From the IMG/VR virus record IMGVR_UViG_3300045988_020586: 64,000 nt of DNA; one strand, given 5' to 3'. The notes beneath the pieces are model-generated. The model did not search any database. It had not been told where the DNA came from and saw nothing but the letters and a program-made list of their open reading frames with translations. Numbering within the stretch: position 1 is the first letter of the stretch; each line of letters opens with the position of its first letter. The translations under genes and the position numbers were made by a program. Source of the stretch: a virus. Shown here piece by piece: positions 894-61,614 of the stretch.

Positions 894-902
894 TAAAATA
901 TT

Positions 903-15900: not shown

Positions 15901-17024
15901 GTTCTGAAGGTATTTCTATATTCGACGAAAACAAATTACCTAGTACATTTAAGGCGGATAAACTTTTAGATTACGCTGAACAATATGCGAAGGATCTTAC
16001 AGAGTCTTTGTCTAAAGATTAGAAGAATAGAAAATCTAAGCCAAAAGACGAATCTAAACAAGTTGTTATGTACAGATTTTCTTCAACAATAAATCCTATG
16101 AAGATAAACGGTTCGTATTACGAAGTTAACCCTAACGATAATAAGCTTAATAACAAGGTTACAAACGAAGATGGTTCTGTAGAATTTGTATCAGCTATTA
16201 ATCCTATTAATAAGATTGAGCAGGACATAAAAAGTTCTGGAGTTGATATAAATATCAACAATGCTAATTTACAGCAGATTGTTGAATAGATACAATCAAG
16301 ACAGAGTATCGGAATATATAGTTTTATACATTTCAATGGAGATATATCCAAGTTTGAACCATCTAAAAAGCAGGTAAGCGATTATATCACATAGAAAGAA
16401 AGTGAATATGAAGACACCCTCGCTTCAGATTTAACTAAAGCTCAACGCAGATAGTTTATAGCAGAATACTCTAAGAAACTCAAAGATGAAGCTCCAGGCG
16501 TATTGTTGCAGAAGAATGTAAACGACAAGGTTGATTCTATTGTAAAGGATTTAATTTCATCAAATGTAACAAACTTTACAATATTATCTACCGGTGATGG
16601 TGTTATAGAGCAAGCTGGAGCACATTCAGCTATGCTTAATCAGTCTAATATAACATCTACACTTGGACCTTGTAGGGTATATATTCTCGGCAAAACTATG
16701 AGTAATCCGGAGTCTTTGGAAGCTGAAAAGTAGAAATATATACTTGATGATGTTGATGTTAAAACTGATGAACAAAAAAGTACCGAAGATGATATAAATA
16801 TGTTGTAGGATGCAGCTGACAACGCTGTTACAAATATCGAAGATATTTAGAACGCACAGTCTGCAGATGATCTGTTATCATAGATAAAGGATTAGGATAA
16901 ACAAGAGTCTGCTCCTAGTGTTGATAATCCTAACGAAACTGCTGGTAGTTTAGATGATTTATTGTCCTAGATTGGTGCTTTGTCAGAAGAGTCTAAAGAA
17001 ACAAATGATAATAAAAACTGTTAA
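903..17024 (+). CDS. Giant (5,373-codon) virion protein with a crAss-type two-barrel RNA polymerase domain; TAG read as sense
   Basis: ATG 903 to TAA 17022-17024. All 17 track ORFs from 1035 to 16503 lie in this one frame. Every codon read by eye: TAG is the only stop triplet in frame (25 in the first ~1000 codons). DFDVD at 13287-13301, flanked by ..IPTQGMSSMFAMTVADVLP.. and ..SAMVNAHVDVAKDPYIF.. Confidence 0.8.
13287..13301 (+). other. DFDVD (DFDxD) putative catalytic metal-binding motif of the virion RNA polymerase domain
   Basis: Codons gac ttc gat gtc gat, about residue 4129 of the giant ORF. DFDxD is the signature reported for crAss-like virion RNAPs such as Cellulophaga phage phi14:2 gp66. 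Confidence 0.6.
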
Positions 17025-17026
17025 TT

Positions 17027-20000
17027 ATGTTTTGTCCTTATTATAAAAATAAAGATGTTTTTGATGGCTTTAACAGTATAATATAGGCACTTGGTGGTAA
17101 ACCAATGACAGAAGAGGAATTTAGGTCCGCAGAGCTGAGAAATCAGCGACGCGGGCTTGATTACTCTGCTATGGAAGCAGCCTATAAAGCCTATCATGCT
17201 AATAATGGTAATCTTATGGATTTAGCTCCAAATGGCTAGCCATCATTAGTATTTCAACAGCTATTGTAGATATACAATGGAGATATAAATAAAGCCATAA
17301 AAGCTAAAACTAATTTATATTCAAAGACGTTTAGAAAGCACTTTGGAGATTGGCTTAGCGATAGTATCAGTAAGGATAAAGTTGATATTAACGGAGAGCC
17401 TATACTTCCTTTTGGGGAGTCATTAGAAAAAGCAAAAGCTTCTGCTTCACTTAGGTCAAAGATTGGTATACAAAACAAATTTAAGAGAGCTAATGTATAT
17501 TCTACTTTTGGAGAATCTATATCAAGTGCTTTATAGAGTGGTAAAGAATAGTCTAGTAAAGATATTGTTTCCAGATTCTCATAGTTGAGATTATTCTCTC
17601 CGTAGAACGAAAAGCTTGCAGAAGTTTTATAGCGTCATGAAATACCTACTGTTTTCAAAAATCATGAAGATGGTAGCCTAATGAAGGCTTATACAATAAA
17701 TGGTAAAAGCGCAATATCTATTGATCCATAGTTAGCTAACAATGTATCTAACCAGTATTTGGCTGATACATATCTACATGAGATAATACATACTATAACA
17801 ACAGATCCTATAAATGACGCAAAAACTAAGGAAGATATTAAATTCAGAGACTAGAATAGGAAAGTATTTAATATATTTAGTAAGTTGTTTCCTAAGGAAT
17901 TATTTAGCAGAATGGATATGTCTGGCCTTTACTATTGTCTTGAAAACGAAAAAGAGTTTGCTTCTGAATTCGCTACAAGACAAGATGTAAGAAGCATGCT
18001 GTACCAGAGAGCTATTCTTGAAGATAAAAAGAATAACAAGGCTCCAATTCTTGCGTTAAAAAACCTTGTAAATAGCCTATCTAGATTATTAGCAAACAGT
18101 AATGTATTTAACACAAATAAAGACCAATTAAAGCTGTATTAGAATACTGCAGCGTCTTATCTATTTAATAGGCCTATTCTTAAATTTGAAGGCTTGTAGG
18201 CGTCTAAAATAATCCAGGAAGTATATAAATCTTTAGATAATTCTGTTCTATCAAACGACCAGATATAGTAGACTAGAGAAGATTTGATCAGATCAACTAA
18301 TTATGCAGAAGTTAATAATTCTATGCGAGTTGATAGAATTAATTATAACGATCTTGGACTTAATACACGAGACTCTGAAGAGATAGCTTAGAAGAGGATA
18401 GAAGAAATGTGTAGCAACATAGCCACTGCCTTATCAAAGAGACAGGCTGCTATTAAAGTATCTTAGCTTCCAGAAGAGTATAAGAGTGAGAATATAGAAA
18501 TACTTAGGTCTCAAGTTTAGTCTTTTAAAGACCGACTTGGAGGAACGTTTTATTCAATAGCTAGTCTTGTACAATAGATTGCACCATAGCTTCTTGTTGA
18601 TTCAAAAAAGATACACAAGATAAGACAAGATAATATGACTATAAGCGATGCTGAGTACATGTTCTTGACACACGATAACTTTGGTACATATTAGAAGATT
18701 TTGTCAGAGATTAATAGCGCTCTTAATTCTCCTACTGTAATAGATTTACTCATAAAAGAACTTGAAGATAAACCGCAACAGGATAGAGCCACTTCTAACG
18801 ATATACAAAGAATAATCTAGATTGTACAAAGTTCAGAAGCTGTAGCAGCAGATGCCACATCTCTTATGTCGGAGATTCTTGTCAATAACATGAAGAAAAG
18901 ATTTGCATAGATAGGTAATGATGTCCATTCTCCTACAATAGCAGATTATATTAATCACCTTAAGACTATAGGATATGATACAAGCTGGTTCTACACTACT
19001 GTAGGTTCTATGGATTCTGCAAAAGACGAAGCTTTAAGAGCAATGGCTTATCTTATAGATAAGGCTACTCATAAAGCTGATAGAGACACTCATGATAGAA
19101 TAGTAGAACTTATGTAGCTTAAAGAATAGCTCAAGTTTGGCGAAAGTGTTCTTGATCTTTATGAGGTTGATGATAATGGGTTTACTACAGGTTACTTAGT
19201 AAGAGCCTTGAATTATGGTAAATTTTTCAGAAAGAGATAGGAGTTTATGGAAAAGCTTAATCTCAAATACGGATTGGATCCATCTAATAGAGAGTAGCCA
19301 AAAGGCGATGATGGTGTAAAATGGAGTAAAGAAGTAAATGACTGGTTAAGCAAAAACTGCCATAGGAAATACAAGAAAGAATACTATGAAGCATTTGCTA
19401 ACCTTTCTGCCGATACTATGAGAGCACGCGATTCTATCTAGATATAGATTAAAGCTATAAAGTCAAGATGTAAAGATGAGTTTGGAAACTATCATTTTGA
19501 TAGACTTACAGATTCTGAATGGAATACACTTAGAGGATTATATATACAAAAGAAATAGTTGGCTTCAGACTATGATGTAAATGGAGATCTTAAGATAGAA
19601 GGTACTCCAGAATATCGTATGGCTAAAGAGCTTTAGAAACTGAACGAGACTCTCTTTAATTCTTCCGATAAAGTTAAAAAGGATACAAAGAGATGGTAGG
19701 CTGACAGAGATAAGATTATCTAGGAATGTGGTGGTCTTGAAGAAATGGCTAAAGGAGAAGATGGTAATTTCGATTTCGATAAGCTTAGAAAATGGGACTC
19801 AAGAAATAGTAAAACTAGACTTAAGGTAAATGAAGAGACAGGTAAAGCATTGCTCTGGGAAACTATTGACAATGAAGTAGAAAAGCCTGTATATGCAATA
19901 ATTGTAGACGAAGTTAGCGACCATGGAGCTAGATATGAAGAATTGTAGCAACAGAAGTATAATATACTGTCTACATACAGAGATTACAATACCGGTGATA

Positions 20001-22864
20001 TAAATCCTTCTAAATTATAGAAGTCTATACAGAATAAAATACAAGAAATAGACAAAGAGTTAGCTAAGATTAGAAAGCAAGCTGTAAGAGAGGATAAAGA
20101 TTTAAAAAAGCTTGCTAAAAATCGTGCAAAAATTTTTAGAAAATACGCTAAATCTTCATTGACTGATGTGTATAAAGAAATGCGTAGATTGGCAGTTCTT
20201 AGAGACAAGGATGAGCCAGGCTATCTTGATACATTCGAAAGAAATACAGGTAGACTCGTAGAGGACGTAGAAGGAGAAATATCATGGTAGGCTAAACCTT
20301 GGTTTAGAAAAGTAGTCGCAAAGCAGGCTTACTACGACAGATTTATGGAAGTATTGCCAGGAGATGGTTATCTTAACTCTGATGAGAACAATGATTTGCT
20401 CGATAAGGATTTCGACGAGAGTTACGGATAGGCATTTGTGCCAAAGAAGGAATTATACGACAATTCTAATTAGTATAACAAGATTGTTAAATCGAAAACC
20501 CTTAAAGCTCTTTATGATAAGACATATCAAACAATTAAAGAGTCTAACGAATTGTAGACAAATAGAAACTATGTAGACAATTATCTTCTTCCATAGATAA
20601 CTGGCTCATTCTTTAAATACCTTAAAAAGCATAGCGGCAAATGGAGAATGGCTTGGGACTTTATCAAAACTGGAAATGTAGACCCATCTTCTTCTGGAGG
20701 TGCTCTTAGAGAATATTTCAAAGATACTGTTGGTATTGGAGAGAAAGGATGGGAGCAAGATGGCACATACGGATAGTTTATTGATTAGGCGTTGTCTGAC
20801 TAGGATTAGTTTGGGGATATCATCAACTCAAAAGATCCTACGTTCGGTAGCGAAATAAGTGGAGAGCGTCCAGATGGTAGACAGCTTAATATGATACCAC
20901 AGTACTATACCAGAAGACTTAAGGATACATCATAGCTTTCGTCTGATTTAATAGGTATACTTGGAGAGTACTACAACTAGTCTTAGAAATATAAGAACAA
21001 GAAGTAGATAGAAGCTACGTGCGAATCTATGGTTGATATGATTGAGAATAGAAATCATGAAAAGGTATCAATTACTGGTAGCATAGGTAATCTTAAGAGA
21101 ACTACTAGAAATGTTACTGGAAAGTCTTCTAATACATATAAGGCTGCTAGAAAATTCTTGGATATGAACCTATATAACATACGTTCTTCAAGAATGTAGG
21201 TAAACATATTCGGCAGATAGGTTAATATGGGCAAGATAGCTCAGTTATTTAGGGCTGCTACAACACTCGTAAACCTTGGCTGTAATATAGCTGTAGCCGG
21301 AACTGGTTTTACTACTGCTATATGGGCACATGTTGTAAATTCTATAGTTGGATAGAAATATAGTTTTTCAGATGCCTGCGCTGCCACTAGATTCGTCTTA
21401 CATCATTTGGTTGAAAATGGCATGGGCGCCAAATATATAGAAGATCGCAATTCTAAAGACCTATTGATGCTTATAATGGAGCATTTTAATATAGCAAGTC
21501 AGCTTGAGAGAAAAATGAAGGATTCGAATAGAAATAAGTTCATAAATGCCATAACTCATAACTGGGCATTCGGCGGTCTTACTATGTTTGACTTTTGTGC
21601 TAAGGCTCCTATAGCTATTTCTACTATAATGTCTTACAGATATTACAATGGAGAATTTACAACCAAGGATGACGTTATAATGAATAATATCCTTAATCCA
21701 GAAGAAGCTAAAAAGCGGATTAAAGAATGGAAAAAAGGAAAGAGTTTGCTGTCTATTATGAAAGAATAGAATGGTAAGCTTACTGTAGATAAACAGTATT
21801 ACAAATAGTATAAACAGATAGAAGACGTACTCCATTCTAGAATTGAGAGATATGCAGAAAATGCAGATGGTATGGCTACCGAATCACAAAAAGCTGCTAT
21901 TACAACAAATGCATTAGGTGCCGCAGTTTTAGTTCATAGGCAATATTTCCCTCTTATGCTTCAAGAGAGATTCGGCGATACTGTATGGGATAATTCTACT
22001 TAGCAATTTAAAGGCGGTTCATTTAGGTCTGGATTACAATTACTCAATGTGCTGTCTAAAGGATATTCTGATGAAGTAAACCTATAGAACTTTTAGGTGA
22101 ACAGAAAGAAGTCAGTCTTAACCGGTCTTGCAACAGGTGCAGCATTAGGCTCGTTTTTACCTATTGTAGGCCCTATGGCTGGTGTTGCTATAGGTTCTGC
22201 AATTGGCGCATTATTGGGCGCTAGAGCGAAAAATTCTAGGTCTTTACAGAGATATTTGTACGACAATTCATCAGAAAATTAGGCTAGATTGTGCAGATTT
22301 AGACGTCAGCAATTAAAACGTCTTGCGACTGAAATCGCTTTATACAAACTAGTTGTTTGCCCTGCTGTTGCCTTAATATGTGCATATGCCGACTCTGATG
22401 ATGATAATAAATTAATGTAGCTACTTGCATATATTGCTGTACGTACAAAATGGGAGGTATTCACTCCTTATCGTTTTGATGATGCATTAAATAACTTTAA
22501 ATCTGTATCAGCGTAGACTGGTACTTTGGATGCTTTTTAGAGCGTTGCTAAATCCGTTCCGGAATACGCATTATATTCCATCATGCCTCGAGGATCGCTA
22601 TTGGATACTTTCCTAGGTGGCTCCTTTAACGATTATGATTCAAGTATATAGCGAGGTATTTACTCTGATTACAATATTCCATTTACAGATACTGAATGGA
22701 ATAAAGCTTCAAGAGATATATTCAAAGCAACACCATTTCATCATGCTTATGAACAAATTCTTGACTCAAAGAGTAAAAGAAGCTATTACGAAAATCAAAT
22801 CATTCAAAATAAATCTTCAGATGACCCATTATATAATTGGGCTTTGGATAAGTTTAGTAAATAA
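17027..22864 (+). CDS. 1,945-codon virion/ejection protein with HExxH zincin motif and C-terminal Gly/Ala-rich hydrophobic segment; TAG read as sense
   Basis: ATG 17027 lies 2 nt after the previous stop; tandem TAA TAA at 22862-22867. Track ORFs 17885, 19745, 21407 and 22097 share this frame. Read by eye, only TAG interrupts it. HEIIH at 17777-17791; ..LTGLATGAALGSFLPIVGPMAGVAIGSAIGALLGA.. at 22097-22240. Confidence 0.75.
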
Positions 22865-27547: not shown

Positions 27548-27670
27548 AACTTATAAGTTAGTGGGCGTCCACCGTCTCGAACCGTGACTATATATTTCTA
27601 TATTAGAGCTTCCCTTCCTCACGCCCTTATAAAAATGAGCAGTTTAATGACATGCTCAGGTCGCGACGGA

Positions 27671-27693
27671 TGGATAGTTTACGGACATATCCA
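27671..27693. repeat. Hairpin related to the GTTTTACAACA-loop family (family 3)
   Basis: TGGATA / GTTTACGGACA / TATCCA followed by GGTCGGGG. Same architecture as 43969-43989 and 44049-44069. Confidence 0.4.
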
Positions 27694-27846
27694 GGTCGGG
27701 GACTTCATTAGTACATCCCAGATCCAACTTAAGTATGGTTCACTCATGAAATCTGGCGCCCCAGGAGAACCGGGGTGCAATAAAAAGAGTGTGCACCTAT
27801 CCTCACGGACCGGAGTTTCCTGCATATATTTGTACCAATGAAATTG

Positions 27847-27943
27847 TGGCTATGCTAGGAATCGAACCTAGCAGAATGGACAAAAGAAAATACACTAAAA
27901 ATAAACCATTCTTGTCATGTGTCTCACGACACCCCGACTAGCC
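27847..27943 (-). ncRNA. 97-nt aberrant tRNA-like element
   Basis: Canonical T-arm CTAGG-TTCGATT-CCTAG. Acceptor GGCTAGT/CATAGCC pairs 5 of 7. D-like arm GTGTC-GTGA-GACAC has a 4-nt loop. A 7-bp stem AGAATGG/CCATTCT closes a 26-nt AU-rich loop. No assignable anticodon. Confidence 0.4.
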
Positions 27944-28139
27944 TTATTGGAGGCATTTCACCTCCAAAGGGTAACTGAATTACCTAGCTCCACCAACACC
28001 CTTTTATGGCAGTATTACCTCCCTTGGGTGTATCCACTTGTCGTATAGTTTGACACTCCTGCTATATAGACGGTATAAAAACCATCTACCGGATTTCATA
28101 CAATCAAGTAGTATTTCTATTTCTTCAGGCGTAAATCCC

Positions 28140-36977: not shown

Positions 36978-37571
36978 TTATGCTATCTTATCAGCTGGTT
37001 TAGAATCTGCCTTCTGACGCTCGTAGTCGGCAACGATCTTCTCGTTTGCTGCAATGGCAGACAAACACTGAGCCTTAGCCTTATTAGCCTGCTCAATAAT
37101 TGCCTCAAGGCGAGCGATCTCACCACGGTTAAGATCGTTAAGAATGCCACTCAAATCCTTAGGATCTGAGAACACAGCCTTAGAGTTCTTGTCCTTAAGA
37201 GCGTTCTGAACTGCCTCCTCTGTGGTCTCACCAAACTTGGTGCTGTTCTCACCGAGAGGGATATCAATCTGGTGCTCGGTGCCCTCATTGAGACGGCAAA
37301 CGACATCACCGATTGCATTCTGCTTGGTTGCCATAGACTCAATCGTAATATAGCCGATCGCAAAACGGCGAGGTGAACGATTGAGGACAAGGTTTACATT
37401 GGAGCCCTGCTTAGCCTGCTCCAAAACCTTATCATGATCTGGGTTGAACATACGGGTCTGAGGAATAAATACGTCCTGACCGAACATTCTGCCACCGAGC
37501 AAGCTCAGTGGGGTACGATTTGACTTAATTGTAGTTTCCACGATGTTTACATTAATTTCTGACATAATCAT
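36978..37571 (-). CDS. hypothetical protein (197 aa)
   Basis: Track ORF with ATG start (alternative ATG 37565) and higher G+C. Confidence 0.6.
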   Translation of the reverse strand: MIMSEINVNIVETTIKSNRTPLSLLGGRMFGQDVFIPQTRMFNPDHDKVLEQAKQGSNVNLVLNRSPRRFAIGYITIESMATKQNAIGDVVCRLNEGTEHQIDIPLGENSTKFGETTEEAVQNALKDKNSKAVFSDPKDLSGILNDLNRGEIARLEAIIEQANKAKAQCLSAIAANEKIVADYERQKADSKPADKIA

Positions 37572-39731
37572 ATCCTTTTTGATATCGTTATTGATTAACT
37601 AACGATATGATTTTTAAAATATGGTGTATTTTGGCTACACCTTTGCCGTTGTTTATTGAATAAAGCAACGCTGATACGAAGATACTCGGTTACTACTTTG
37701 CTTACTTAGTTTTCTAAAGAAAGTTCTACTATTGTAGACGCTTTTCATAGACTTAGCTACACTATTTCTACTACAACAATAGGGTAGTAGACTTGTAGCA
37801 GGAATTACGTACGTATGACGTAATTAACATTTACTGGATTATCCAGGCCCATCGTCTAAAGCTTTGAATGCTTTCTTTGCATAATCAAATGCTGAACTAT
37901 TTTCTGCTATTTTGTTCACGTTTTTTCTAACTTAACTATTCTAATCTTCGTTGGTGAAATTTTGCAGAGCAACTAACACTCATAGAATCTTAGAATCCTT
38001 ATAACCCACGAAAATATGTAGAATCTCGGTCGTATTTCCCTTACTATACTTACAAGATATTCCTACACGATTGTTATTAAAGCAGATGATCTCTACTGCT
38101 AACTTAAAAGCGACTGTCAGCTAGGTCTCCTTACTGCGGTACTCGGCTTATGGCATGTACCCAGCGGTTGGTTATCGGAATGTCTCAGGATCAAACCCAT
38201 CACAGACTTTACGGCTTTTTACATCTTTGCTGATGTTTGCAATTTTTCTGTACCGGTATTACTACCTCCTATTTATAGTGCACGAATATTGGGAATTCAA
38301 CCCATACATTTCATCTTGTCACCCACTTATAAACGTAATATACATGTATAGAGACAGTATACACATATAATATACACAGTCGTTTTACAACATAGAATAT
38401 AAGCTGCCCATCAATTTCCTGTATTGCTTCGAACCTTTGTGTTTACATATACTGTTGCACAGTATACTTTAGCATGGTTGGCATATCGGTTGGCACTCGA
38501 TTTCTTTACCTCAAGTCCTTACTTACAACGTAAGATACACTCTATAAAGGGACATCAATTTTTTGTTAAACATGTTACATTTTAAACTTTCTAGATTTTC
38601 ATAGTCTATATCTTTTGCATACAACATACGCATATATAATATACCAGCTTACTACTCTGTAGAGACTATATAATATTGCATATCATAATACAAATAGACT
38701 ATTGGTCTAAATTGTTTTGGATGAAAGTGGAGGTCAAATGATCCTGGCTGGATATATCTCGAATCAACTTTCTACCTATTTTGCTATTTCTTATTCTAGG
38801 ATAGCTTTCCATCAATTTTCTTTGACTGTAACGGAGTCATCGATCATAGTCTCATGAACGATTTAATTTTCATGGAAATTGGCTGTAAGTTCGGATTGCC
38901 TAACATCCTAATTGCAACTGGAATAGATTTTCACCGCGATCTTCACCCGCGTACGATACTCCCGTAGAGCTTCGATTAAGGGACTGCCCAACCCTTGTGC
39001 TTGTTTTACTTTTATATACCGCATAAACAAGAAAAGCCTGGCGGTCTACCATGAACTCAGACGTCTTACACCTCATCCCTGGCACCCCTTCAATGGAGTT
39101 GTGACGAATCGAACGTCAAGGACTATATGCCAACGTATTCACCATACGTCCCGTGAGTATTATCCTCACGATATTGCGTCTTAGATAAATTTTTCGGCCT
39201 TTATACTAGCTTTGGACACTAGAAACACTACCTACGGCTTAATAATACTTCTATATTGTTTGGGATATCCTCGGTTCTTCCAGCACCATGCACCATACCA
39301 TGTATGCAATTCTGTTCACCTACTGGGGACCAATATAGTTCATCTCGTGTAACGTTCGTGTATGCTTAGTATTATCACATACAATTCCGATACGGTTCAT
39401 TATGCCCTTCTTGGGACTTATGCGTTTTTAGATTACACAGCCTCATCCAGCTTGTCTCCAGACGGTTCTCACAAGTCCAGCTGTGTAATCTATAGGAGTT
39501 GATACAACGCTACTCCTACCTATATCAAACCGTTTCAATGTTTGATACATTTCATCCTACCTTTTGAGTGATCTCGCCCTGCAAGACAGGGTTAACATAT
39601 TCTCGGATCCAGTTTAATTTGATTGAGTTTTTCTTCTAGCTCCTTCGCGGGGGGATGTTCCAGAATAGTACGTAGACTAATGGGATCTACTATATGTACT
39701 TACCTAATTATAGCACATAGGGTTCTTATGT
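37572..39731. other. 2,160-nt ORF-free, hairpin-dense region (candidate ncRNA locus, origin or regulatory region)
   Basis: No ORF of 75 aa or more on either strand, even with TAG as sense. Many perfect inverted repeats, e.g. 37803-37825 (8 bp), 39431-39490 (11 bp) and 39577-39591. AT-rich core at 38560-38720. Confidence 0.6.
37672..37686. repeat. Family 1 motif TGATACGAAGATACT, copy D
   Basis: Exact 15-mer shared with 45143, 45314 and 45412. Lies about 100 nt upstream of the ATG of 36978-37571. The flanking stem is imperfect. Confidence 0.5.
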
Positions 39732-40133
39732 TTACTTATGTACATTAGAGGCGATTTGGATATAATCACGGAGCTCTCCCTTACGAATGGTAGAGTTGTG
39801 ATTAGTGGAGTCGACCTTTTCTCCAGGTTCCATAATATACAGAAGTGGTACATACGACGTATCTGTCTTCTTAATTATGGTGCGTTTAACAATTGCCTTT
39901 GCAGGCAACTGTTTATGATTACAAGGTACAGGCACTTTTACCTTAACGGTATCATGCACTGTATCAGGATTAGCACGATTCATCTGACCAAACAAATGGT
40001 CCATTGGTTGCGATACAGTAGATGCTGCTACTGTTTGCACTGTCGTCGGAAGGGGCACGTTCTTAAGATCTGCAATATTCATGCCGATCGCAAGAAATGC
40101 TGCACCTAGCAACGTTGTTACTAATTTTTTCAT
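39732..40133 (-). CDS. secreted or membrane-anchored hypothetical protein (133 aa)
   Basis: N-terminal signal-like MKKLVTTLLGAAFLAIGMN. Confidence 0.55.
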   Translation of the reverse strand: MKKLVTTLLGAAFLAIGMNIADLKNVPLPTTVQTVAASTVSQPMDHLFGQMNRANPDTVHDTVKVKVPVPCNHKQLPAKAIVKRTIIKKTDTSYVPLLYIMEPGEKVDSTNHNSTIRKGELRDYIQIASNVHK

Positions 40134-40234
40134 ACTTTGATAGTTAAATTATTTGCGTTCACTTTGCCATTGGATATCAAAGGCTCTTCTAACGCGACCA
40201 ACTAGTTGTGAACCAGCTTTCTTAATTGGCCGTA

Positions 40235-41746
40235 TTATTTTTTTACCTGAGCCTTAGCCTTACCCTTGGCTTCCTTCTTCTTGTTCTCTGCTGCCTTCTT
40301 ATCAGCTGCTTCCTTAGCAGCCTTGGCAACAGCCTCTTCCTCGGCCTTGATCTCTTCGTCGGTCTTAAATGCCAAGTCGATAATATTCTCCTTAGCATAA
40401 CCTACGAGCGGATCAGAAGGATTACGGAACAGATTAGAGATGATACCTGCATACTGAGTAGCGTTATCCAGCATAGAATCAGACTTAACCTTAGCCATCA
40501 TCTCTGGAACTACATCGCGATAGTATGCACGCTTAATAGAGATAACAGTCTTCTTAGCGAAGCTATTACCATCCAAGAAGTTCTTCTTCAGGTTCTCAAC
40601 AAACTCACCTGGAGCTGCAATAACTGCTGCAGTAGCCTTATCGGCAAATGCGATATTCTTGTTAGCTGTATCGATATGCGCCTGAACACGCTCCTTCTCA
40701 GGAAGCTTGTTCTCTTCCTCAATCATAATCTTGCCCTTAGAGCGAACCTCATCAGCACTGATAAGAACAAGACATCTTACAGCGTCTGCAATCTGATTAT
40801 CGGTATACTTACATACACCGGTGTTCTTGTCTGTAGAATGGTCAAGAAGCTCACAGAACGCAGATACAGGAGATCCTGACGTAGCGGTAACGTTGAAGAG
40901 GTGAGCGCCAATTCCATAAGTGAGAGTTCCGACACGACCCGTAAGGCTAACAACCTCACGAAACACGTCATGAAAATTCATGTTGTTGACACGCTCAAGA
41001 TTACTCTTAGCAGAAGCAAGAGCCTTCTCAGCGTTTTCCTTGTACTTCTTGTCCTTGGTGTCCTTAAGTGTCTTCTCGGCGGACTCGATCGCACGCTTAG
41101 CTTCGATAGAGCGATATGCCTTATAGAAGTTCACGCACTGCATAATGCTGTCCATAAGCTTAGAATCACGATTCATAGCCAGGAAACCAGACAACGCCTC
41201 CTTAAGCTCTTCCTCATCCTTGATCTTTGTAGGATCAAAGACCTTACCTGCTGTTGCAGCACGAGCCTGTGCGTCTTTGTCAAGATTCTTTGCAGTCTCT
41301 TCTGAAACTTGTACAGCTGCACCTGTAACCTCAACTGCTTCAGCGTCTTCGGTCGAAGGCAAGAGCTTAGCCTCGTCAAAGTTTACACCAATCTCTTTAA
41401 GAGCTTCCTTAAGCTCTGGGAGCGCAGACTTGCGAATTACTAACGCAAAGTCACTAGAACCATACTTAACCTCATTGCACATGCATACAGCAATGCCAAG
41501 AGCATTAATATGATTGATCTTGTCGATGGCTCCCTGCGGGATACCAGTATGCTCTGCAGCGTTCTCATCCAAGAAGAAACGATCATGAGCCATCTTCAAC
41601 AAGTCTACCTGATGGTTACGGTCCATGCTTGACCCACCTGTTGTTGTGAGCATAGCTGCAGCCTCAACAGCTGCATTTACACCGTTATCACCATTGTTGT
41701 TATTCTGGGCAACCTTAACGTTACCCTTGTTCTTTTTATTAGCCAT
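40235..41746 (-). CDS. hypothetical protein (503 aa) with Lys-rich C-terminal tail
   Basis: Longest leftward ORF. Higher G+C (26/60 at 41281-41340 versus 20/60 at 48421-48480). Tail ..AAKEAADKKAAENKKKEAKGKAKAQVKK. ATTATCAAA leader. Confidence 0.7.
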   Translation of the reverse strand: MANKKNKGNVKVAQNNNNGDNGVNAAVEAAAMLTTTGGSSMDRNHQVDLLKMAHDRFFLDENAAEHTGIPQGAIDKINHINALGIAVCMCNEVKYGSSDFALVIRKSALPELKEALKEIGVNFDEAKLLPSTEDAEAVEVTGAAVQVSEETAKNLDKDAQARAATAGKVFDPTKIKDEEELKEALSGFLAMNRDSKLMDSIMQCVNFYKAYRSIEAKRAIESAEKTLKDTKDKKYKENAEKALASAKSNLERVNNMNFHDVFREVVSLTGRVGTLTYGIGAHLFNVTATSGSPVSAFCELLDHSTDKNTGVCKYTDNQIADAVRCLVLISADEVRSKGKIMIEEENKLPEKERVQAHIDTANKNIAFADKATAAVIAAPGEFVENLKKNFLDGNSFAKKTVISIKRAYYRDVVPEMMAKVKSDSMLDNATQYAGIISNLFRNPSDPLVGYAKENIIDLAFKTDEEIKAEEEAVAKAAKEAADKKAAENKKKEAKGKAKAQVKK

Positions 41747-43752: not shown

Positions 43753-43761
43753 AACTAATAG

Positions 43762-43820
43762 GAAGAAGCTGGGGAATCGAACCCCAGACCCAAACCAAAA
43801 GGCGACGGTACCAACTTCTT
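43762..43820 (-). ncRNA. 59-nt tRNA-like minihelix: acceptor plus T-arm, no D or anticodon arms
   Basis: T-arm TGGGG-TTCGATT-CCCCA. Acceptor AAGAAGT/GCTTCTT has 7 bp including one G-U. Only 27 nt lie between the acceptor 5' strand and the T stem. Confidence 0.35.
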
Positions 43821-43968
43821 TCTTCTCTCCACTTAGGTAGGAAGCACCTAGACTAAACTTACGCTACGCAAGTATAGTCTACAATGTTATTTACATTGCC
43901 GTTTAATTTATAGTATAGTGCTTAATGTATTTATCTCCTCTGTCTGTCAAAACCAAACACGCCCGTGT

Positions 43969-43989
43969 AGGCAGTTTTACAACATGCCT
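43969..43989. repeat. Family 3 hairpin, copy 1 (loop GTTTTACAACA)
   Basis: AGGCA / GTTTTACAACA / TGCCT followed by AGGTTG. Confidence 0.55.
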
Positions 43990-44048
43990 AGGTTGCCACG
44001 TTTTCGCGAACAAAAATGTGATCTGTCATACATAGACACAAACAGAAT

Positions 44049-44069
44049 AGACAGTTTTACAACATGTCT
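44049..44069. repeat. Family 3 hairpin, copy 2 (loop GTTTTACAACA)
   Basis: AGACA / GTTTTACAACA / TGTCT followed by GGGTTG. A compensatory G-to-A and C-to-T change relative to copy 1 keeps the stem paired. Confidence 0.55.
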
Positions 44070-44180
44070 GGGTTGTTGTTCAGATTGAACACTCTCTGCG
44101 GGAGGGTGTGGACGTGAGGGGAGTCGACAAAATCTTCAAGTTCATTGCAACTATTCCACTCTGCTCCACGTTATATTTAT

Positions 44181-44798
44181 ATGGAACAGATAAAGAAATA
44201 TATGCAAAACAGAAAGTTAATAACTTTCGTTTGTGATTGTTGTGGAAAAGAAGCTCAAAAACCTCTTTCCGAATACAACAGAAACAAGAAACTTGGTAGG
44301 AAGAATTTTTGTAGTAGAAGTTGTGCAATTCGTTATGCTAATAAAAATAAATTACATACATTTACAGATAAATGTAGAGAACATCTTTTAAGTATTTGCA
44401 ACAATCAAATAGACGAATATACCGATTTTAGATATATCCTTAGAAGTGTCTATAAAAGATTTAAAGAAGTAGATATAGATTTAGAGTATCTAAAACAACT
44501 TTGGGAGACACAAAAAGGAATTTGCCCTTATACTGGTATAAAATTAAAGCTTCCAACATATAAAAGCCATAACTTCTATTTTGATTGTGCATCTTTAGAC
44601 AGAATAGATTCTTCTAAAGGCTACGTTAAAGGAAATGTTCAATTCATATCATTACCTATAAATTATATGAAATCTACTAAATCAGATATTGAAATCAGAC
44701 AATTTCTTAAACAAATTTCTTCTTACACTTCACATTTCTGCGAAGATGAGACTATCTCTTCACCTAAAGAGGTGTTGGGCGCTCGAGCTGGTAATTAA
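44181..44798 (+). CDS. HNH-family endonuclease, free-standing and opposite in orientation to its neighbours
   Basis: ..CASLDRIDSSKGYVKGNVQFISLPIN.. and N-terminal Cys pairs CDCCGKE..CSRSC. Start set at ATG 44181. Confidence 0.7.
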   Translation: MEQIKKYMQNRKLITFVCDCCGKEAQKPLSEYNRNKKLGRKNFCSRSCAIRYANKNKLHTFTDKCREHLLSICNNQIDEYTDFRYILRSVYKRFKEVDIDLEYLKQLWETQKGICPYTGIKLKLPTYKSHNFYFDCASLDRIDSSKGYVKGNVQFISLPINYMKSTKSDIEIRQFLKQISSYTSHFCEDETISSPKEVLGARAGN

Positions 44799-45137
44799 GA
44801 AGACTATACTTCTCCAGTAGTCGTTGCACTTTCTTGTGGTGTACCACAAGCTTAGCTCAGGGTTAGCATGAACAATACTAGCTTTGAGCTATTATTGTTT
44901 TTAGCCTTCCTTGAATTCACCCAATATGGGCTCGGTAAGAACCCCTGTCCAAACAGATTATTTCATACACACTGTACATTTGTTTTGTAAATGTCCTGAT
45001 GATCAGTCAGAACATTTGATTTAAACCACTTTAGGTGCGTTCTAAGGCATTTTTGCGACACTTGTGGTTAATTACTCCACTCGGTGACATACTCTGCCTC
45101 AGAATGCATTAGAACATGGTTGAAAATATATAGGAAT

Positions 45138-45163
45138 CCTCATGATACGAAGATACTTAGAGG
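45138..45163. repeat. Family 1 hairpin, copy A
   Basis: CCTC / ATGATACGAAGATACTTA / GAGG. Confidence 0.5.
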
Positions 45164-45304
45164 GCTATATTCAGCATTTTTGATACATTTTGCAGGGTTC
45201 GATTAACTTTCTCAGAGCAACCAAATCTCCCCGATACAAAGATACGCACAAAACATATTGTTTGATCTACTGTCCCAATTTATTGTGTGGGTTCACATCT
45301 CTTC

Positions 45305-45337
45305 TTCTCATCGTGATACGAAGATACTTGATGAGAA
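45305..45337. repeat. Family 1 hairpin, copy B
   Basis: TTCTCATC / GTGATACGAAGATACTT / GATGAGAA (8-bp stem). Confidence 0.6.
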
Positions 45338-45406
45338 TGTTAATTCATTCTGAGATTCCTTCACTGTCTCGTCCCTCGGGACCTCCTGTAGTACTTGAGA
45401 ATCTGT

Positions 45407-45431
45407 GTACGTGATACGAAGATACTTGTAC
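45407..45431. repeat. Family 1 hairpin, copy C
   Basis: GTAC / GTGATACGAAGATACTT / GTAC. Lies 12 nt beyond the stop of 45443-45937. Confidence 0.55.
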
Positions 45432-45442
45432 TAGAAGAAGAA

Positions 45443-50920: not shown

Positions 50921-50952
50921 ATATATAATTATTGATTAATATACATAATAAA

Positions 50953-50982
50953 AACGTGCCTATCTTCACAGACCAGCACGTT
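50953..50982. repeat. Family 2 hairpin, copy 1 (loop CTATCTTCACAGACCA)
   Basis: AACGTGC / CTATCTTCACAGACCA / GCACGTT. Confidence 0.65.
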
Positions 50983-51460
50983 GAGCATCGAAATAAAACC
51001 TACGTCACTTAGTAAAAGATGATGTAAGAAAATCGGTATGGTAAAAAACAAATTGAAGTGGTTACTGGACTCGAACCGTCGCTATGTTGCGCTTTACTAT
51101 AGCCAAGTACAATATCCATATAATGCATTTGTACATAGTATACCCTCTTGCTTTAGCAAGTGTATAATAACCACTATCCGTCTCTCCAGATTGTCATAGA
51201 GACTGGGTCTACATTTGACAGATTGCACCTTTTGCAAATAGGCTGTAGTTACCGTATCTCAGTTTTACACGTAAACCTATTGCCTATAGACGACTCACCC
51301 TCTGTGTTCTACAATCGACATCTTATAGCTTTGCAAGTACCATAAGCACGTGTTGTAGTCATGGGCTTGGGACCATGAACGCCACATTACTGCCTACGAT
51401 TTATCACGTTAGCGTAGGCGCTCCGTCATCCTAGTTTATATACCGCATGAGATAACGGTT

Positions 51461-51492
51461 TAATACAACTATCTTCACAGACCATTGTATTA
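51461..51492. repeat. Family 2 hairpin, copy 2
   Basis: TAATACAA / CTATCTTCACAGACCA / TTGTATTA. Confidence 0.65.
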
Positions 51493-51609
51493 TGAGGTCT
51501 ATTCGCGCTTTGAGTAATGAATCAGACTACACCATGATGCAACATGTGTAGTTTCGTCTAGGTCTCATCAGTGATGATTTTAGACTCTCCCTAGCTGAGT
51601 TTAAATAAA

Positions 51610-51641
51610 ACATACCACTATCTTCACAGACCATGGTATGT
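51610..51641. repeat. Family 2 hairpin, copy 3
   Basis: ACATACCA / CTATCTTCACAGACCA / TGGTATGT. Confidence 0.65.
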
Positions 51642-51791
51642 GCCAAACCTATTGTTGTTACACTTAACAACTACAACCTACATCCTAACTAAAAAACCTG
51701 ACATTTATTTGATTATTATACGTCTTTATTTGTCTTTCCAAATGCCAACGCTTATTTATACTCTTGCGTATAGAGTTATGTTATTATACAT

Positions 51792-51980: not shown

Positions 51981-52357
51981 ATTGATTATGTTTTTATTAC
52001 CGATTTAAAAGTGTTCGTCTGTTCCGAACTGCCAACACAAGTCTTGTCTTGTGATTAATTTACTTTCCAAGATGTCTGTTACTAATTTTTATGTGCTATA
52101 TGTAACAATATATACACAAGTATTTTTGTAGAAAAACACAAAACTATTTATCTCATACTATTTGCTCGGTTATGATAAATAGTTTACCGAACAAAGCTTC
52201 TATAATGATTACACAACTAATTTGTCCTTCGTAATAACTTGTATTACGAAATTAGTTTCCATGTTGTTATAGAAGCAATTAAGTTTACACATCTACGCAA
52301 TGTGCATAAAAGCTATATATTAAAACAGCCTATTTGAGCTGTTACGTAGAATTTTTC

Positions 52358-52401
52358 TGAAAAAAGGGGTTTGGGAGATTGTTTTACCAATCCCCATCCC
52401 C
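52358..52401 (-). terminator. Intrinsic terminator after 52403-52921
   Basis: Hairpin GGGGTTTGGGAGATTG-TTTTAC-CAATCCCCATCCCC at 52366-52401, directly after the TAG stop. On the - strand it is followed by a 6-nt U-run (52360-52365). Confidence 0.6.
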
Positions 52402-52402
52402 A

Positions 52403-59124: not shown

Positions 59125-59195
59125 CGCGGGATGGTGAAATGGTATCACGTGTGGCTCATAACCATAGATTGCTAGTTCGACTCTAGCTCCCGCAA
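59125..59195 (+). tRNA. tRNA-Met (CAU) with a C1-A72 mismatch (initiator-like)
   Basis: Acceptor CGCGGGA/TCCCGCA, D arm GTGA-AATGGTA-TCAC, anticodon arm TGTGG-CTCATAA-CCATA, T arm GCTAG-TTCGACT-CTAGC. Confidence 0.8.
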
Positions 59196-60433
59196 CACTG
59201 AGCTTCGATTGTGTGGTGTTCTACATATTTGGCCACCAGGAGCGAAATTGATATCAGAAAAATATGTCGGCTACAATGGTTTAAAGTGTAGCAATGTAGT
59301 TTTAGGCAGATAAAAAGCTCGGTAGCCTAAGGTGAGCTTCTACAATATTGCCCATTCGCGTACCAGCTAGCGCACCGGGCTCTTTTGTCCAATGAATAAT
59401 TGAATATATAATAATGGAAAATAAAATATATAAACTCTCAGACGAACAGTTTGTTGAGTTACTCAAGAAAAGTTCAACAATATCTGAAGTGTTGTTTAAA
59501 CTTGGTTATACAGTTAAAGGAAACTCTTGGGGATATTCCCAAGTAAAAAGAAGAATGGATGATCTGAATTTAGACTATTCTATATTCAAAGGCAAATCAG
59601 CTGTTATAAAAACAACCAAGTTAAACAATGTAAAGAAGGAAGATATACTAAAGAAAAATTGTAGGCATCAGCGTACAGTACTAAGGAGATACGTTATTAA
59701 AAATAATTTAATCCCATACAAATGCGCGATATGCGGATGCACCGAATGGCAAGGAAAAACATTAAGCTTGGAACTTGATCATATAAATGGTGTAAACAAT
59801 GACAATAGATTAGAAAACCTTAGGTTTTTATGCCCTAATTGTCATAGTCAAACTTCAACGTATGGAAGCAGAAATCAGCAACTTAATAGTTCTGAATATG
59901 ATATCCCAGACGATTTAAGAAAGATGGTTGAAGAGAAGTATGATGAAGTTAAAAGTGTTAAAAGAGTATCATCAATACTTGGAATACGAAGATGCGTTGT
60001 TACAAAAATAGTTAATGAATCAGGTCAAAAACATTCTAATCAAAAGTATATAATAAGGTACGATAAAGATTGGAATGAGCTCGCAAGATACGGTTCTCTC
60101 GTAGAAGCTGCCAAAGCTTTAATAGAAGCTAATGAAGTTAAAACAAAGCGAGTAAAGACTTGTACTAGAACTATAATGTACAATAAAGATAATTTTTGGT
60201 TGAACAGTCATTGGAAAATATTGGATGGTAGCGGGATAATAAATAATCCGCTATTAGAACCTTCTCTAATTGACTCGGAAGACACTGTTGACGAGGCGCA
60301 AGCGAAAGCAGCGTGACAGACTAAACGAGAAGGCTGACCTTAGGGTTGGATGCAATAGTCGAGCTAATGAACCCCGGGGGAGTGGGGGCAGCACCTACAT
60401 GGGCGACAATAATTAAACAATATTATAAATACT
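59196..60433 (+). mobile_element. Group I intron-like element carrying an HNH ORF; host exons not identified, boundaries approximate
   Basis: Core-like ACAGACTAAA (60316-60325) and GCAATAGTCGAG (60352-60363). A 12-of-13 long-range pairing joins 59326-59338 to 60332-60344 across the ORF. GAAA-capped helices near 60300. Confidence 0.5.
59414..60316 (+). CDS. HNH homing endonuclease (300 aa)
   Basis: ..CGCTEWQGKTLSLELDHINGVNNDNRLENLRFLCPNCHS.. Confidence 0.8.
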   Translation: MENKIYKLSDEQFVELLKKSSTISEVLFKLGYTVKGNSWGYSQVKRRMDDLNLDYSIFKGKSAVIKTTKLNNVKKEDILKKNCRHQRTVLRRYVIKNNLIPYKCAICGCTEWQGKTLSLELDHINGVNNDNRLENLRFLCPNCHSQTSTYGSRNQQLNSSEYDIPDDLRKMVEEKYDEVKSVKRVSSILGIRRCVVTKIVNESGQKHSNQKYIIRYDKDWNELARYGSLVEAAKALIEANEVKTKRVKTCTRTIMYNKDNFWLNSHWKILDGSGIINNPLLEPSLIDSEDTVDEAQAKAA

Positions 60434-60685: not shown

Positions 60686-61614
60686 AGAATATTGATACGT
60701 TATTGAGTATCAATGCAACCAACTCTATTCGCATATCGTTATGATGATATAACTAAACACAAAATATCATGATAACAAAAATTTGCAAACAATGTGGTAA
60801 GGAATTTGATGTACCAGAATACAGAAAGGATGCTAAATACTGCTGTGACGAATGTAAACACAAAGCACTGCATGGAGATTTAAATTGTGAGTGTGAGGTT
60901 TGTGGCAAGAAATTCCACTTAAAACCATACGCTCTTAAAAAGAGTAAACATCATACATGTAGCCGCGAGTGTTTAAACAAACTTAAAAGTACATTATATA
61001 AAGGTGAAGGAAATCATCAATATGGTCTAAAAGGCGATAAGAATTCATCTTTCAAAGGAAACGTAATCCTGCGTAAGAACAATGGACTAATCGAGAGAAT
61101 GATCTACAATCCTAGACACCCATACGCTGATCGTAATGGTAGGATTAAGGAACACAGATTAATAGTTGAGCAGAATTACAAAATGTTTGACGATAAATAC
61201 TTTGAAGTTATAAACGGAGAGCATTATTTAAAGAAGAATGTAGATGTACATCACATTAACTTTAATCATAACGATAATAGAATAGAAAACCTAATTCCCT
61301 TGACTAGAGCGGAACATACAAAGCTTCATAACCAAAATGAAGTTATATACAGAAATGAGAAGGGAATGATAATTGGTGTCTTAAAACAGGGTGAATTGCT
61401 GGAAAAGCCTGAAGAGGTCAATCAGCAGCCAAGCTTGGGTAGTGATACCCTTGAAGGTTCAGAGACTAACAGCCGAGTCTTACGAGACAGTAATGCTGAC
61501 ACGAGTGCCCTGCCCGGAAACGGTGAAGATATAGTCCGATCTACTGATAACAAAATAAACAGTAGAAATATAGAGATAAAGAGCTCTATAGATTAACAAC
61601 TCCTAATTTTGTTG
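60686..61614 (+). mobile_element. Group I intron (about 929 nt) in dut, carrying an HNH ORF
   Basis: It separates GVIDA from DYRGEI. Exon 1 ends in U (gcT) and the intron ends in G (ttgttG). Core-like CAGAGACTAA (61460-61469) and GAAGATATAGTCC (61525-61537), plus UACG- and GAAA-capped helices in between. Confidence 0.7.
60769..61596 (+). CDS. HNH homing endonuclease (275 aa), intron-encoded
   Basis: N-terminal Cys clusters and ..VDVHHINFNHNDNRIENLIPLTRAEHTKLHN.. Its 3' third overlaps the intron core. Confidence 0.75.
   Translation: MITKICKQCGKEFDVPEYRKDAKYCCDECKHKALHGDLNCECEVCGKKFHLKPYALKKSKHHTCSRECLNKLKSTLYKGEGNHQYGLKGDKNSSFKGNVILRKNNGLIERMIYNPRHPYADRNGRIKEHRLIVEQNYKMFDDKYFEVINGEHYLKKNVDVHHINFNHNDNRIENLIPLTRAEHTKLHNQNEVIYRNEKGMIIGVLKQGELLEKPEEVNQQPSLGSDTLEGSETNSRVLRDSNADTSALPGNGEDIVRSTDNKINSRNIEIKSSID

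Follow-up and report, generated by a model that had tools for sequence, protein, structure and literature searches.

The stretch of viral DNA analysed here, 64 kilobases (kb) long and called the window below, very probably holds a gene for a structured RNA on the minus strand of positions 37623-39731. It is likely, if less certain, that this gene specifies one densely folded non-coding RNA of ~2.1 kb that belongs to a new family. A first-pass annotation, made from the sequence alone, had noted that 37572-39731 contains no plausible open reading frame (ORF) and had suggested one or more large structured non-coding RNAs, a replication origin or a regulatory hub as its content. The first suggestion is supported by covariation on a defined strand, by purifying selection of a non-coding kind and by conservation across three phage subfamilies; the other two are not supported. 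The origin is discussed with the other alternatives, and a small regulatory role might fall to a palindrome next to the downstream gene.

Judged by its sequence, the window is from a crAss-like phage of the genus Burzaovirus, subfamily Oafivirinae. Positions 37572-39731 are matched over their full length in cr7_1 (94.5% identity) and cr124_1 (92%), both Burzaovirus, and piecewise in the other Oafivirinae genera, between which blocks of 70-80% DNA identity are kept. Public records place these phages in the family Suoliviridae, while the 2026 NCBI taxonomy has Oafivirinae in Darmviridae; Loutivirinae and Boorivirinae, the two further subfamilies considered below, are both Suoliviridae.

Compensatory substitutions maintain the helices

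The structure was predicted with RNAalifold from 30 non-redundant Oafivirinae sequences in the minus-strand orientation, and comprises 434 pairs in 97 helices. As controls, the pairing partner was slid by one to three columns, and 500 shuffles were made. Standard pairs were formed by 91.3% of the cells, compared with 33-46% in the slid and 81.9% in the shuffled controls. Both sides had changed in 209 pairs, as opposed to 70-83 in the slid controls and 140 +/- 5.5 in the shuffles, none of which reached the observed count, and the covariation score was 0.296 (slid, 0.05-0.08; shuffled, 0.150). Covariation, on which the first-pass annotation had made its RNA suggestion depend, is therefore present on a defined strand. 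We also applied the structure to six held-out genomes that are 83-85% identical to their nearest training sequence. These were 88-93% paired, and where both bases were new to the genus (136 pairs), 114 were paired and 22 unpaired, compared with 13-30 and 19-49, respectively, in the slid controls. The five Loutivirinae sequences, treated alone, yielded 496 pairs, 93% paired, with 126 compensatory pairs vs 18-28 in controls. Two elements of the 5′ core, the AUCC/GGAU helix and the CCCUG/CAGGG hairpin, covary across all three subfamilies; the two most variable pairs of the hairpin read CG:13, UA:9, GC:4, AU:2 and CG:17, GC:6, UA:4, AU:1. The helices are maintained by compensatory substitutions.

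The alifold energy was -482 kcal/mol for the minus strand and -432 kcal/mol for the plus strand. In the 215 pairs common to the predictions for the two strands, G-U pairs numbered 170 on the minus strand vs 87 on the plus strand. All genes around 37572-39731, which form the early/replication block, are likewise carried by the minus strand, and we assign the RNA to this strand because of the G-U asymmetry and the gene orientation.

The repeats picked out in the first-pass annotation are all present, and each maps to a covarying helix of the predicted structure (Table 1). The 8-bp inverted repeat at 37803-37825 (AATTACGT/ACGTAATT) is part of the covarying helix 89, and the CCCTG/CAGGG pair at 39577-39591 is found in other genera as CCTT/AAGG, GCGCT/AGCG(T), CCGT/ACGG or CTCTG/CAGAG. 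All five pairs of the hairpin at 39102-39118, which had been described as T-arm-like, covary; 97.9% of its cells are paired and its loop, UUCGAUU, is conserved. The recurring AGACTAT/ATAGTCT words of the AT-rich core at 38560-38720 are the arms of the long AU-rich hairpin. An inverted repeat reported as 11 bp at 39431-39490 is present as well, its perfect arms being in fact 13 nucleotides (nt) long; the inner stem of this hairpin is CUUGU/ACAAG here and GUCCA/UGGAC in other genera. The CGCG/CGCG pair at 38935-38951 exists and is conserved, with an ambiguous pairing register. The 5′ core contains, in addition to the two elements that covary across subfamilies, CUCAAAAGGUAGGAUGA, a UGAAA loop, an AGGAG...CUCCU hairpin and the invariant UGAGAACCGUCUGG.

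The stretch also has conserved GAAA-containing loops and an invariant UAUGG. T-loop-like hairpins, GAAA loops and such motifs are typical of RNAs with tertiary folds. A further motif, AAAUUGAUG(G/U), occurs in three copies on the RNA strand (38402-38420, 38553-38566 and 38803-38821), with a different helix beside each, and is reminiscent in appearance of a box-C or kink-turn-like UGAUG element. The T-loop hairpin was considered as a part of a transfer RNA (tRNA) and rejected, as Rfam and ARAGORN detect no tRNA. A hidden suppressor tRNA around it was rejected too: the 7-nt loops beside it have neither U33 nor a CUA anticodon, and an ordinary tRNA(CUA) is encoded elsewhere in cr7_1.

A conserved locus that is neither coding nor decaying

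The longest stop-to-stop frame in 37572-39731 has 82-85 codons in the standard code, and 146, 101 or 115 codons when TAG, TGA or TAA, respectively, is read as sense. The claim that no plausible ORF is present was thus borne out in four codes, and the standard ORF list agrees with the 61-71 amino acids (aa) given earlier. We examined diversity and codon phase in 15 aligned Burzaovirus genomes. Nucleotide diversity was 0.015-0.09 in the stretch vs 0.05-0.13 in most flanking coding sequences (CDSs). Over the whole stretch the variable sites were spread flatly over the three phases (108/97/103), in contrast to 32/13/102 and 93/57/308 in flanking genes. No convincing codon periodicity was seen in 240-nt sub-windows; the single one at p=0.02 involved 17 sites, and its enriched phase was not the third codon position of the overlapping plus-strand ORF at 38155-38370. 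Indels in the stretch measured 1, 2, 4, 6, 7, 21 and 39 nt, whereas those in the flanking genes measured 3 nt only. The stretch is not protein-coding and, being no more diverse than real genes, it is not decaying either; it is under purifying selection.

An open plus-strand frame at 38876-39355 recurs in many genera and is a CDS in some records. Its variable sites fall 27/26/25 by phase, it changes between close relatives (L087 vs L088), frame-breaking indels separate alleles of one genus, and in the window TAG stops interrupt it, in a block where the standard code otherwise applies. As the frame is inconsistent and without periodicity, we rejected it as a gene; open frames on the plus strand are best explained by the purine-rich RNA strand. 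Four public CDSs lie inside the RNA gene. Translation of cr7_1 gp52 (L001 7306-7788), a 'hypothetical protein' with in-frame stops, and of Bohxovirus ECCNAKDA_00150 (L004 5327-5833) showed that the frame differs between relatives and lacks codon periodicity. Of the other two, cr109_1 gp34 (L302 6510-6947) and cr10_1 gp22 (L306 6734-6919), one is encoded opposite to the RNA, and a covariance-model match overlaps the other. All four are probably spurious. Ordinary protein genes at this place in related genomes, which the first-pass annotation had regarded as speaking against an RNA, were looked for and none was found, the annotated CDSs being neither conserved in frame nor periodic.

The gap between the gp53-like and gp51-like genes measures 2025-2223 nt in all five Oafivirinae genera, in which it is unannotated or holds one stray CDS only. 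An outward tblastn search with the gp54-like protein led to two more subfamilies with a like gene order and a gap, of 2109-2152 nt in Loutivirinae (Buorbuivirus, Buchavirus and Blohavirus) and ~2.1-2.5 kb in Boorivirinae (Cohcovirus, Culoivirus and Canhaevirus), so that the total size is 2.0-2.5 kb in 11 genera. With an Oafivirinae profile, nhmmer recovers the Loutivirinae gaps in colinear order, on the strand of the genes, in a 5′ block (E 1e-19 to 5e-10) and a central block (E 1e-14 to 5e-4). A covariance model (R1) covering the 175 positions of the 5′ core was derived from Oafivirinae and Loutivirinae, with Boorivirinae sequences left out, and it matches the 5′ ends of all three Boorivirinae gaps (E 1.4e-12, 3.7e-12 and 6e-7); in the 100 kb of cr7_1 searched it gave one strong match, and none in unrelated loci. 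By these sequence comparisons, position, orientation, size and 5′ core are conserved in Oafivirinae, Loutivirinae and Boorivirinae.

A three-motif pattern was found in 71 IMG/VR contigs and a related one in at least 120 metagenome contigs; among the metagenome matches listed, nearly all longer contigs are ~95-106 kb. The same pattern occurs in two complete phage contigs of ~101 kb (L170, L176) in bins of metagenome-assembled genomes labelled Segatella copri. This binning hints at Segatella copri as the host, and also shows contamination of such bins by phage. One relative is named Buchavirus copri, and a recent preprint describes a Darmviridae phage of Segatella copri. Contigs L171-L175, from unrelated bacterial genomes, and the short metagenome contigs L201, L205 and L218 also matched a pattern; these matches were dismissed as chance, as neither nhmmer nor the covariance model matches the contigs.

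Table 1. The probable RNA gene, its elements and its flanking genes, in window positions.
Feature	Position	Strand	Remarks
Gene for a ~2.1-kb highly structured non-coding RNA (likely)	37623..39731	-	both ends predicted
Conserved 5′ core domain	39438..39625	-	covariance model R1, 152 bits here
Hairpin with perfect 13-nt arms, invariant UGAGAACCGUCUGG at apex	39429..39492	-	arms 39429-39441 and 39480-39492
Covarying hairpin CCCUG-loop-CAGGG (helix 7)	39577..39591	-	covaries across three subfamilies
T-loop-like hairpin UGACG-UUCGAUU-CGUCA (helix 29)	39102..39118	-	5/5 pairs change on both sides
Long AU-rich irregular hairpin (helices 46-50)	~38601..38702	-	inverted repeat I2; apical UCUCUACAGAGUAGUAAGCUGG nearly invariant
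Hairpin containing 8-bp inverted repeat (helix 89)	37801..37828	-	8/10 pairs change on both sides
Terminator-like hairpin GGUGUAGCCAAAAUACACC then AUAUUUU	37641-37623	-	probable 3′ end
Palindrome ATATCGTT-N11-AACGATAT then CAAAAAGGAT	37582..37608	-	immediately before gp51-like start codon
Upstream flanking gene, gp53-like, 133 aa	39732..40133	-	syntenic in all relatives; variable sites by codon position 19/18/37
Downstream flanking gene, gp51-like, 197 aa	36978..37571	-	syntenic in all relatives; variable sites by codon position 32/13/102

Predicted extent of the transcript and alternative explanations

On the 5′ side the conserved structure starts directly after the gp53 stop codon, and in most other genera it opens with a covarying hairpin that has UUUGC at its apex. 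The 5′ end may be set by a promoter of its own, for which a sigma-70-like match exists at 39734-39707, or by processing. The 3′ end probably lies at the terminator-like hairpin of Table 1; in other genera, a hairpin and T-run are located ~60-100 nt ahead of the downstream start codon. No further terminator-like sites were found on the minus strand inside the stretch, where promoter-like matches are at chance level. The palindrome in front of the gp51-like gene is near-invariant across the aligned Oafivirinae genera (weakest in L076) and unique in the window; we treat it as a small element distinct from the RNA, which might serve as an operator or as a hairpin controlling translation.

Several points weigh against a single, stable, functional RNA molecule. 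The structure was predicted from the very alignment on which most of the counts were made, which is why the held-out test was run, and more distant held-out sequences pair less well (68-75%), partly through alignment error. Single-sequence folding of the two halves gave z-scores of -0.16 and -1.57, which are not unusual, the neighbouring coding stretch scoring -1.80. As these scores are unremarkable, the raw density of hairpins is not above chance; the stretch had been described as packed with perfect inverted repeats, and while all the repeats named do exist, by folding energy they are no denser than expected by chance. The structural evidence is evolutionary, not thermodynamic, and the special character of the stretch is visible only by comparing genomes. 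The long-range helices that would tie the domains together (1, 4, 20-22, 51 and 85) show little or no covariation. Conservation of the sigma-70-like site does not extend even to near relatives, and no conserved instance of the Bacteroidota-type promoter motif (TAnnTTTG) was found upstream; because of this lack of a conserved promoter, co-transcription followed by processing, or read-through, may produce the RNA. We infer the transcript, its ends and its stability, and none of the results bears directly on the mechanism of the RNA. The AlphaFold model of the 503-aa gp54-like protein is all-helical and mediocre (predicted local distance difference test score, pLDDT, of 68), and a Foldseek search with it returned generic helical-repeat hits only (E>0.01) and no structural match.

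Foremost among the alternatives is a row of several independent smaller structured RNAs, 200-700 nt each, small RNAs or ribozyme-like, lying side by side in place of one molecule. We regard it as unlikely. It would fit the locality of the well-supported helices beside the weakly covarying or non-covarying long-range closing helices, the many small RNA genes nearby in this genome group (transfer-messenger RNA (tmRNA)-like, group I introns, hammerhead, RAGATH), and the between-subfamily sequence homology, which falls in two separate blocks and does not run end to end. It is harder to reconcile with the lack of internal terminator-like sites and the chance level of internal promoter-like matches, with a total length held at 2.0-2.5 kb in 11 genera, and with helix 36, which spans ~240 columns and has compensatory changes in four of its six pairs.

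Considerably less probable is a long cis-acting leader or spacer that would govern read-through into the genes from gp51 to DNA polymerase, or the processing or translation of their message, and might for instance time the passage from early to replication genes. Such an element would share the orientation of its genes and lie, as this stretch does, directly between two co-oriented gene blocks; it would need no conserved promoter of its own, and the terminator-like hairpin and invariant palindrome that shortly precede the downstream gene would make sense. However, the 5′ core, though 2 kb away from the gene to be regulated, is as strongly conserved as the part near that gene, and 2.1-2.5 kb with ~100 helices is far larger than known leaders; we know of no cis-regulatory leader (riboswitches, T-boxes, put or EAR elements) near this size.

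We give very little credence to a replication origin or a structured primer RNA of the ColE1 RNA II type, even though the stretch adjoins the replication gene block and has an AT-rich core. The core turns out to be a covarying hairpin, the stretch contains neither iterons nor tandem repeats, and the cumulative GC skew turns at ~22 kb and ~56 kb, where gene orientation switches, and not at 38 kb. The strand-specific G-U pattern, moreover, indicates selection at the RNA level over the whole 2 kb. A negligible probability attaches to decayed pseudogenes and to a gene read unconventionally (in another code or with frequent frameshifts, including the plus-strand CDSs of cr7_1, Bohxovirus and cr109_1): the recurrence and occasional annotation of the plus-strand frame, and the use of TAG as sense elsewhere in this phage, are outweighed by its inconsistent frame, TAG stops, flat phases and frame-breaking indels, by a diversity no higher than in real genes, and by the openness of the plus strand that a purine-rich RNA strand leads one to expect.

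If one RNA is made from the locus, it would be transcribed with the early/middle standard-code block, between the group of ECF-sigma (extracytoplasmic function sigma factor), gp54 and gp53 and the group from gp51 to DNA polymerase, and would end at the intrinsic terminator ~50 nt ahead of the next gene. Its fold would comprise four or more domains, each roughly 200-700 nt in size, and it might act in trans as a stable scaffold during infection, either in a ribonucleoprotein or in an RNA-only assembly of the GOLLD/ROOL type, and not as a cis leader. The tertiary-fold-type motifs (the T-loop, the GAAA loops, UAUGG and AAAUUGAUG(G/U)) lead us to favour such a trans-acting scaffold by analogy with the phage-associated GOLLD and ROOL. 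This mechanism is tentative, our confidence in the scaffold being low; below it we rank several smaller RNAs in a cluster, a leader acting in cis and an RNA that serves as primer or origin. To a broader proposal we give slightly less than an even chance: that this is a single stable RNA of 2.1-2.5 kb, of an undescribed class and the largest structured non-ribosomal phage RNA known, present throughout the Delta group (Darmviridae and Suoliviridae), which may build a higher-order machine. That machine may be a GOLLD/ROOL-like RNA-only cage, or a factor that helps to take over host gene expression in connection with the switch from early genes in the standard code to late, TAG-recoded ones.

Large structured RNAs other than ribosomal RNA (rRNA) are rare, and earlier classes (OLE, GOLLD, ROOL and HEARO) brought new biology or architecture. 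The RNA would occupy ~2% of a 100-kb phage genome, at a locus that has been retained while the flanking proteins of the lineages diverged to 20-35% identity. Its carriers rank with the most common viruses in the human gut, yet the locus is annotated as empty or with a spurious 'hypothetical protein', and several public genome annotations are corrected here. The RNA offers a defined and abundant target for cryo-electron microscopy and functional work on crAss-like phages of Segatella/Prevotella, whether uncultured or recently brought into culture. These genomes are rich in RNA elements (tmRNA-like genes, group I introns, hammerhead, RAGATH) and use amber recoding, and RNA mechanisms may weigh heavily in the biology of such phages.

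Surrounding elements and comparison with known RNAs

The genes upstream of the ORF-free stretch are, in order, a tmRNA-like gene, small genes, an ECF-type sigma factor, gp55, gp54 (503 aa) and gp53 (133 aa); gp51 (197 aa) and gp50 follow it, and the order continues to the genes for DNA polymerase, helicase and primase. Between Oafivirinae genera, gp51 proteins share no more than 28-36% identity. In PHROGs and Pfam the ECF-type sigma factor was the sole neighbour matched, with no domain in seven other neighbours tested, including the gp53-, gp54-, gp51- and gp50-like proteins, and a PDB sequence search of the flanking proteins gave no match.

The ~5 kb of ORF-free DNA summed in the first-pass annotation is partly accounted for by RNA genes, at 43753-44144, 44799-45442 and 50921-51791, and not at 27548-28139 and 51986-52402. 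The first of these intervals is ORF-free because of a tmRNA-like gene at ~43770-44130 (-), in which a T-arm with acceptor end (GGGGTTCGATTCCCC...) and an open tag frame, GNVNNIVDYTCVA*, can be recognised. In the window this gene escapes both ARAGORN and Rfam, with a match to an 18-nt piece only. At the equivalent place in cr7_1, cr131_1, cr50_1 and cr52_1, ARAGORN reports a permuted tmRNA with similar tags (..VDYT..VA*), and in cr50_1 the Rfam model tmRNA_permuted scores above its gathering score. Rfam also finds group I introns at 44728-45020 (-; 81 bits) and 61316-61557 (+; 65 bits). The former lies within ~890 nt that are absent from cr7_1, between the tmRNA-like gene and the next gene; the inserted DNA includes, on the plus strand, an ORF of 217 aa (44145-44798) in which Pfam detects no domain. 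A RAGATH-1 hammerhead ribozyme at 51520-51601 (-; Rfam) is flanked by a 28-nt palindrome-ended repeat, ATACnACTATCTTCACAGACCATnGTAT, at 51463-51490 and 51612-51639, 149 nt apart, and a third core copy is found at 50960-50975, 509 nt upstream of the first. The early regions of relatives contain RAGATH-9, -20 and -22. The 0.6-kb ORF-free stretch at 27548-28139, upstream of the primase gene, is present also in cr7_1; it has no repeats of at least 12 nt and no Rfam match at gathering score, and may be a better origin or promoter candidate than the 2.1-kb stretch.

Two giant ORFs appear when TAG is read as sense, at 897-17024 (+; 5375 codons) and 17015-22864 (+; 1949 codons), with 153 and 60 in-frame TAGs. 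On this sequence evidence the rightward module is taken to be amber-recoded, and the leftward module, which holds the RNA, to use the standard code. Among the four tRNAs in the window none reads UAG, despite the more than 200 in-frame TAGs. One of them, at 59125-59196 (+), has the anticodon CAT (loop CTCATAA), and the cr7_1 tRNA of the same length at what is probably the equivalent place has CTA, an amber suppressor.

The first-pass annotation had proposed scanning Rfam, including its large phage-associated RNAs and introns. Rfam 15 gave no match in the stretch at gathering score and no relevant match at E<=10 in 37000-40300, and none in the equivalent gaps of two relatives (L299, L303). The covariance models of GOLLD, ROOL, OLE, HEARO, raiA and the other large non-coding RNAs of Rfam 15 are unmatched in the stretch, in which ARAGORN and Rfam found no rRNA, RNase P RNA, tmRNA or tRNA. 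We found no description of the RNA in the searchable literature, which leaves out subscription journals, so that an earlier report is possible. As the RNA matches no catalogued family, a new RNA family is the probable assignment.

Introns are large structured RNAs and frequent in crAss-like phages, but they are sporadic, unlike the RNA described here, which is fixed and syntenic across subfamilies. A group I intron was rejected, as no intron model matches the stretch even at E<=10, though Rfam finds two group I introns elsewhere in the window. A group II intron was rejected on the grounds that there is no Rfam match at E<=10 and no internal ORF, and that the flanks are not exons of one gene, each being a complete gene in its own right, bounded by its own start and stop codons. 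The phi29 pRNA and ColE1 RNA II are also non-coding RNAs of mobile elements, which serve packaging or replication in a structural or priming role. They are 120-550 nt long with few helices, and no homology to them was detected. OLE (~610 nt), HEARO, raiA and T-large resemble the RNA in being large, highly conserved, structured and identified by comparative genomics; they differ in giving no Rfam match here, and they are cellular, not phage-borne.

RAGATH RNAs and the candidates of a large screen of phage intergenic regions (8,495 short candidates, with motifs of 29-151 nt; PMC10690425) share genomic neighbourhoods with the RNA, and fragments of it may be among those candidates. However, they are shorter than 200 nt, none covers the 2-kb unit, and no Rfam RAGATH model matches the stretch. 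GOLLD is likewise a large, multi-domain, covariation-supported non-coding RNA, carried by phages and prophages and of unknown function. The crAss-like RNA does not match its Rfam model, is ~2.5 times longer, and is carried by virulent-type Bacteroidota phages at one fixed syntenic position, with the nearest tRNA genes 4-8 kb away. ROOL (rumen-originating, ornate, large; ~580 nt), also of unknown function, has no Rfam match here and belongs to a different phage lineage, the crAss-like RNA being ~3.5 times longer; like it, ROOL is large and ornate, and is common in gut and rumen metagenomes and on phage-like contigs. Both GOLLD and ROOL form RNA-only multimers, homo-oligomeric assemblies in the former and cage-like ones in the latter, according to the report on them (PMC12286853).

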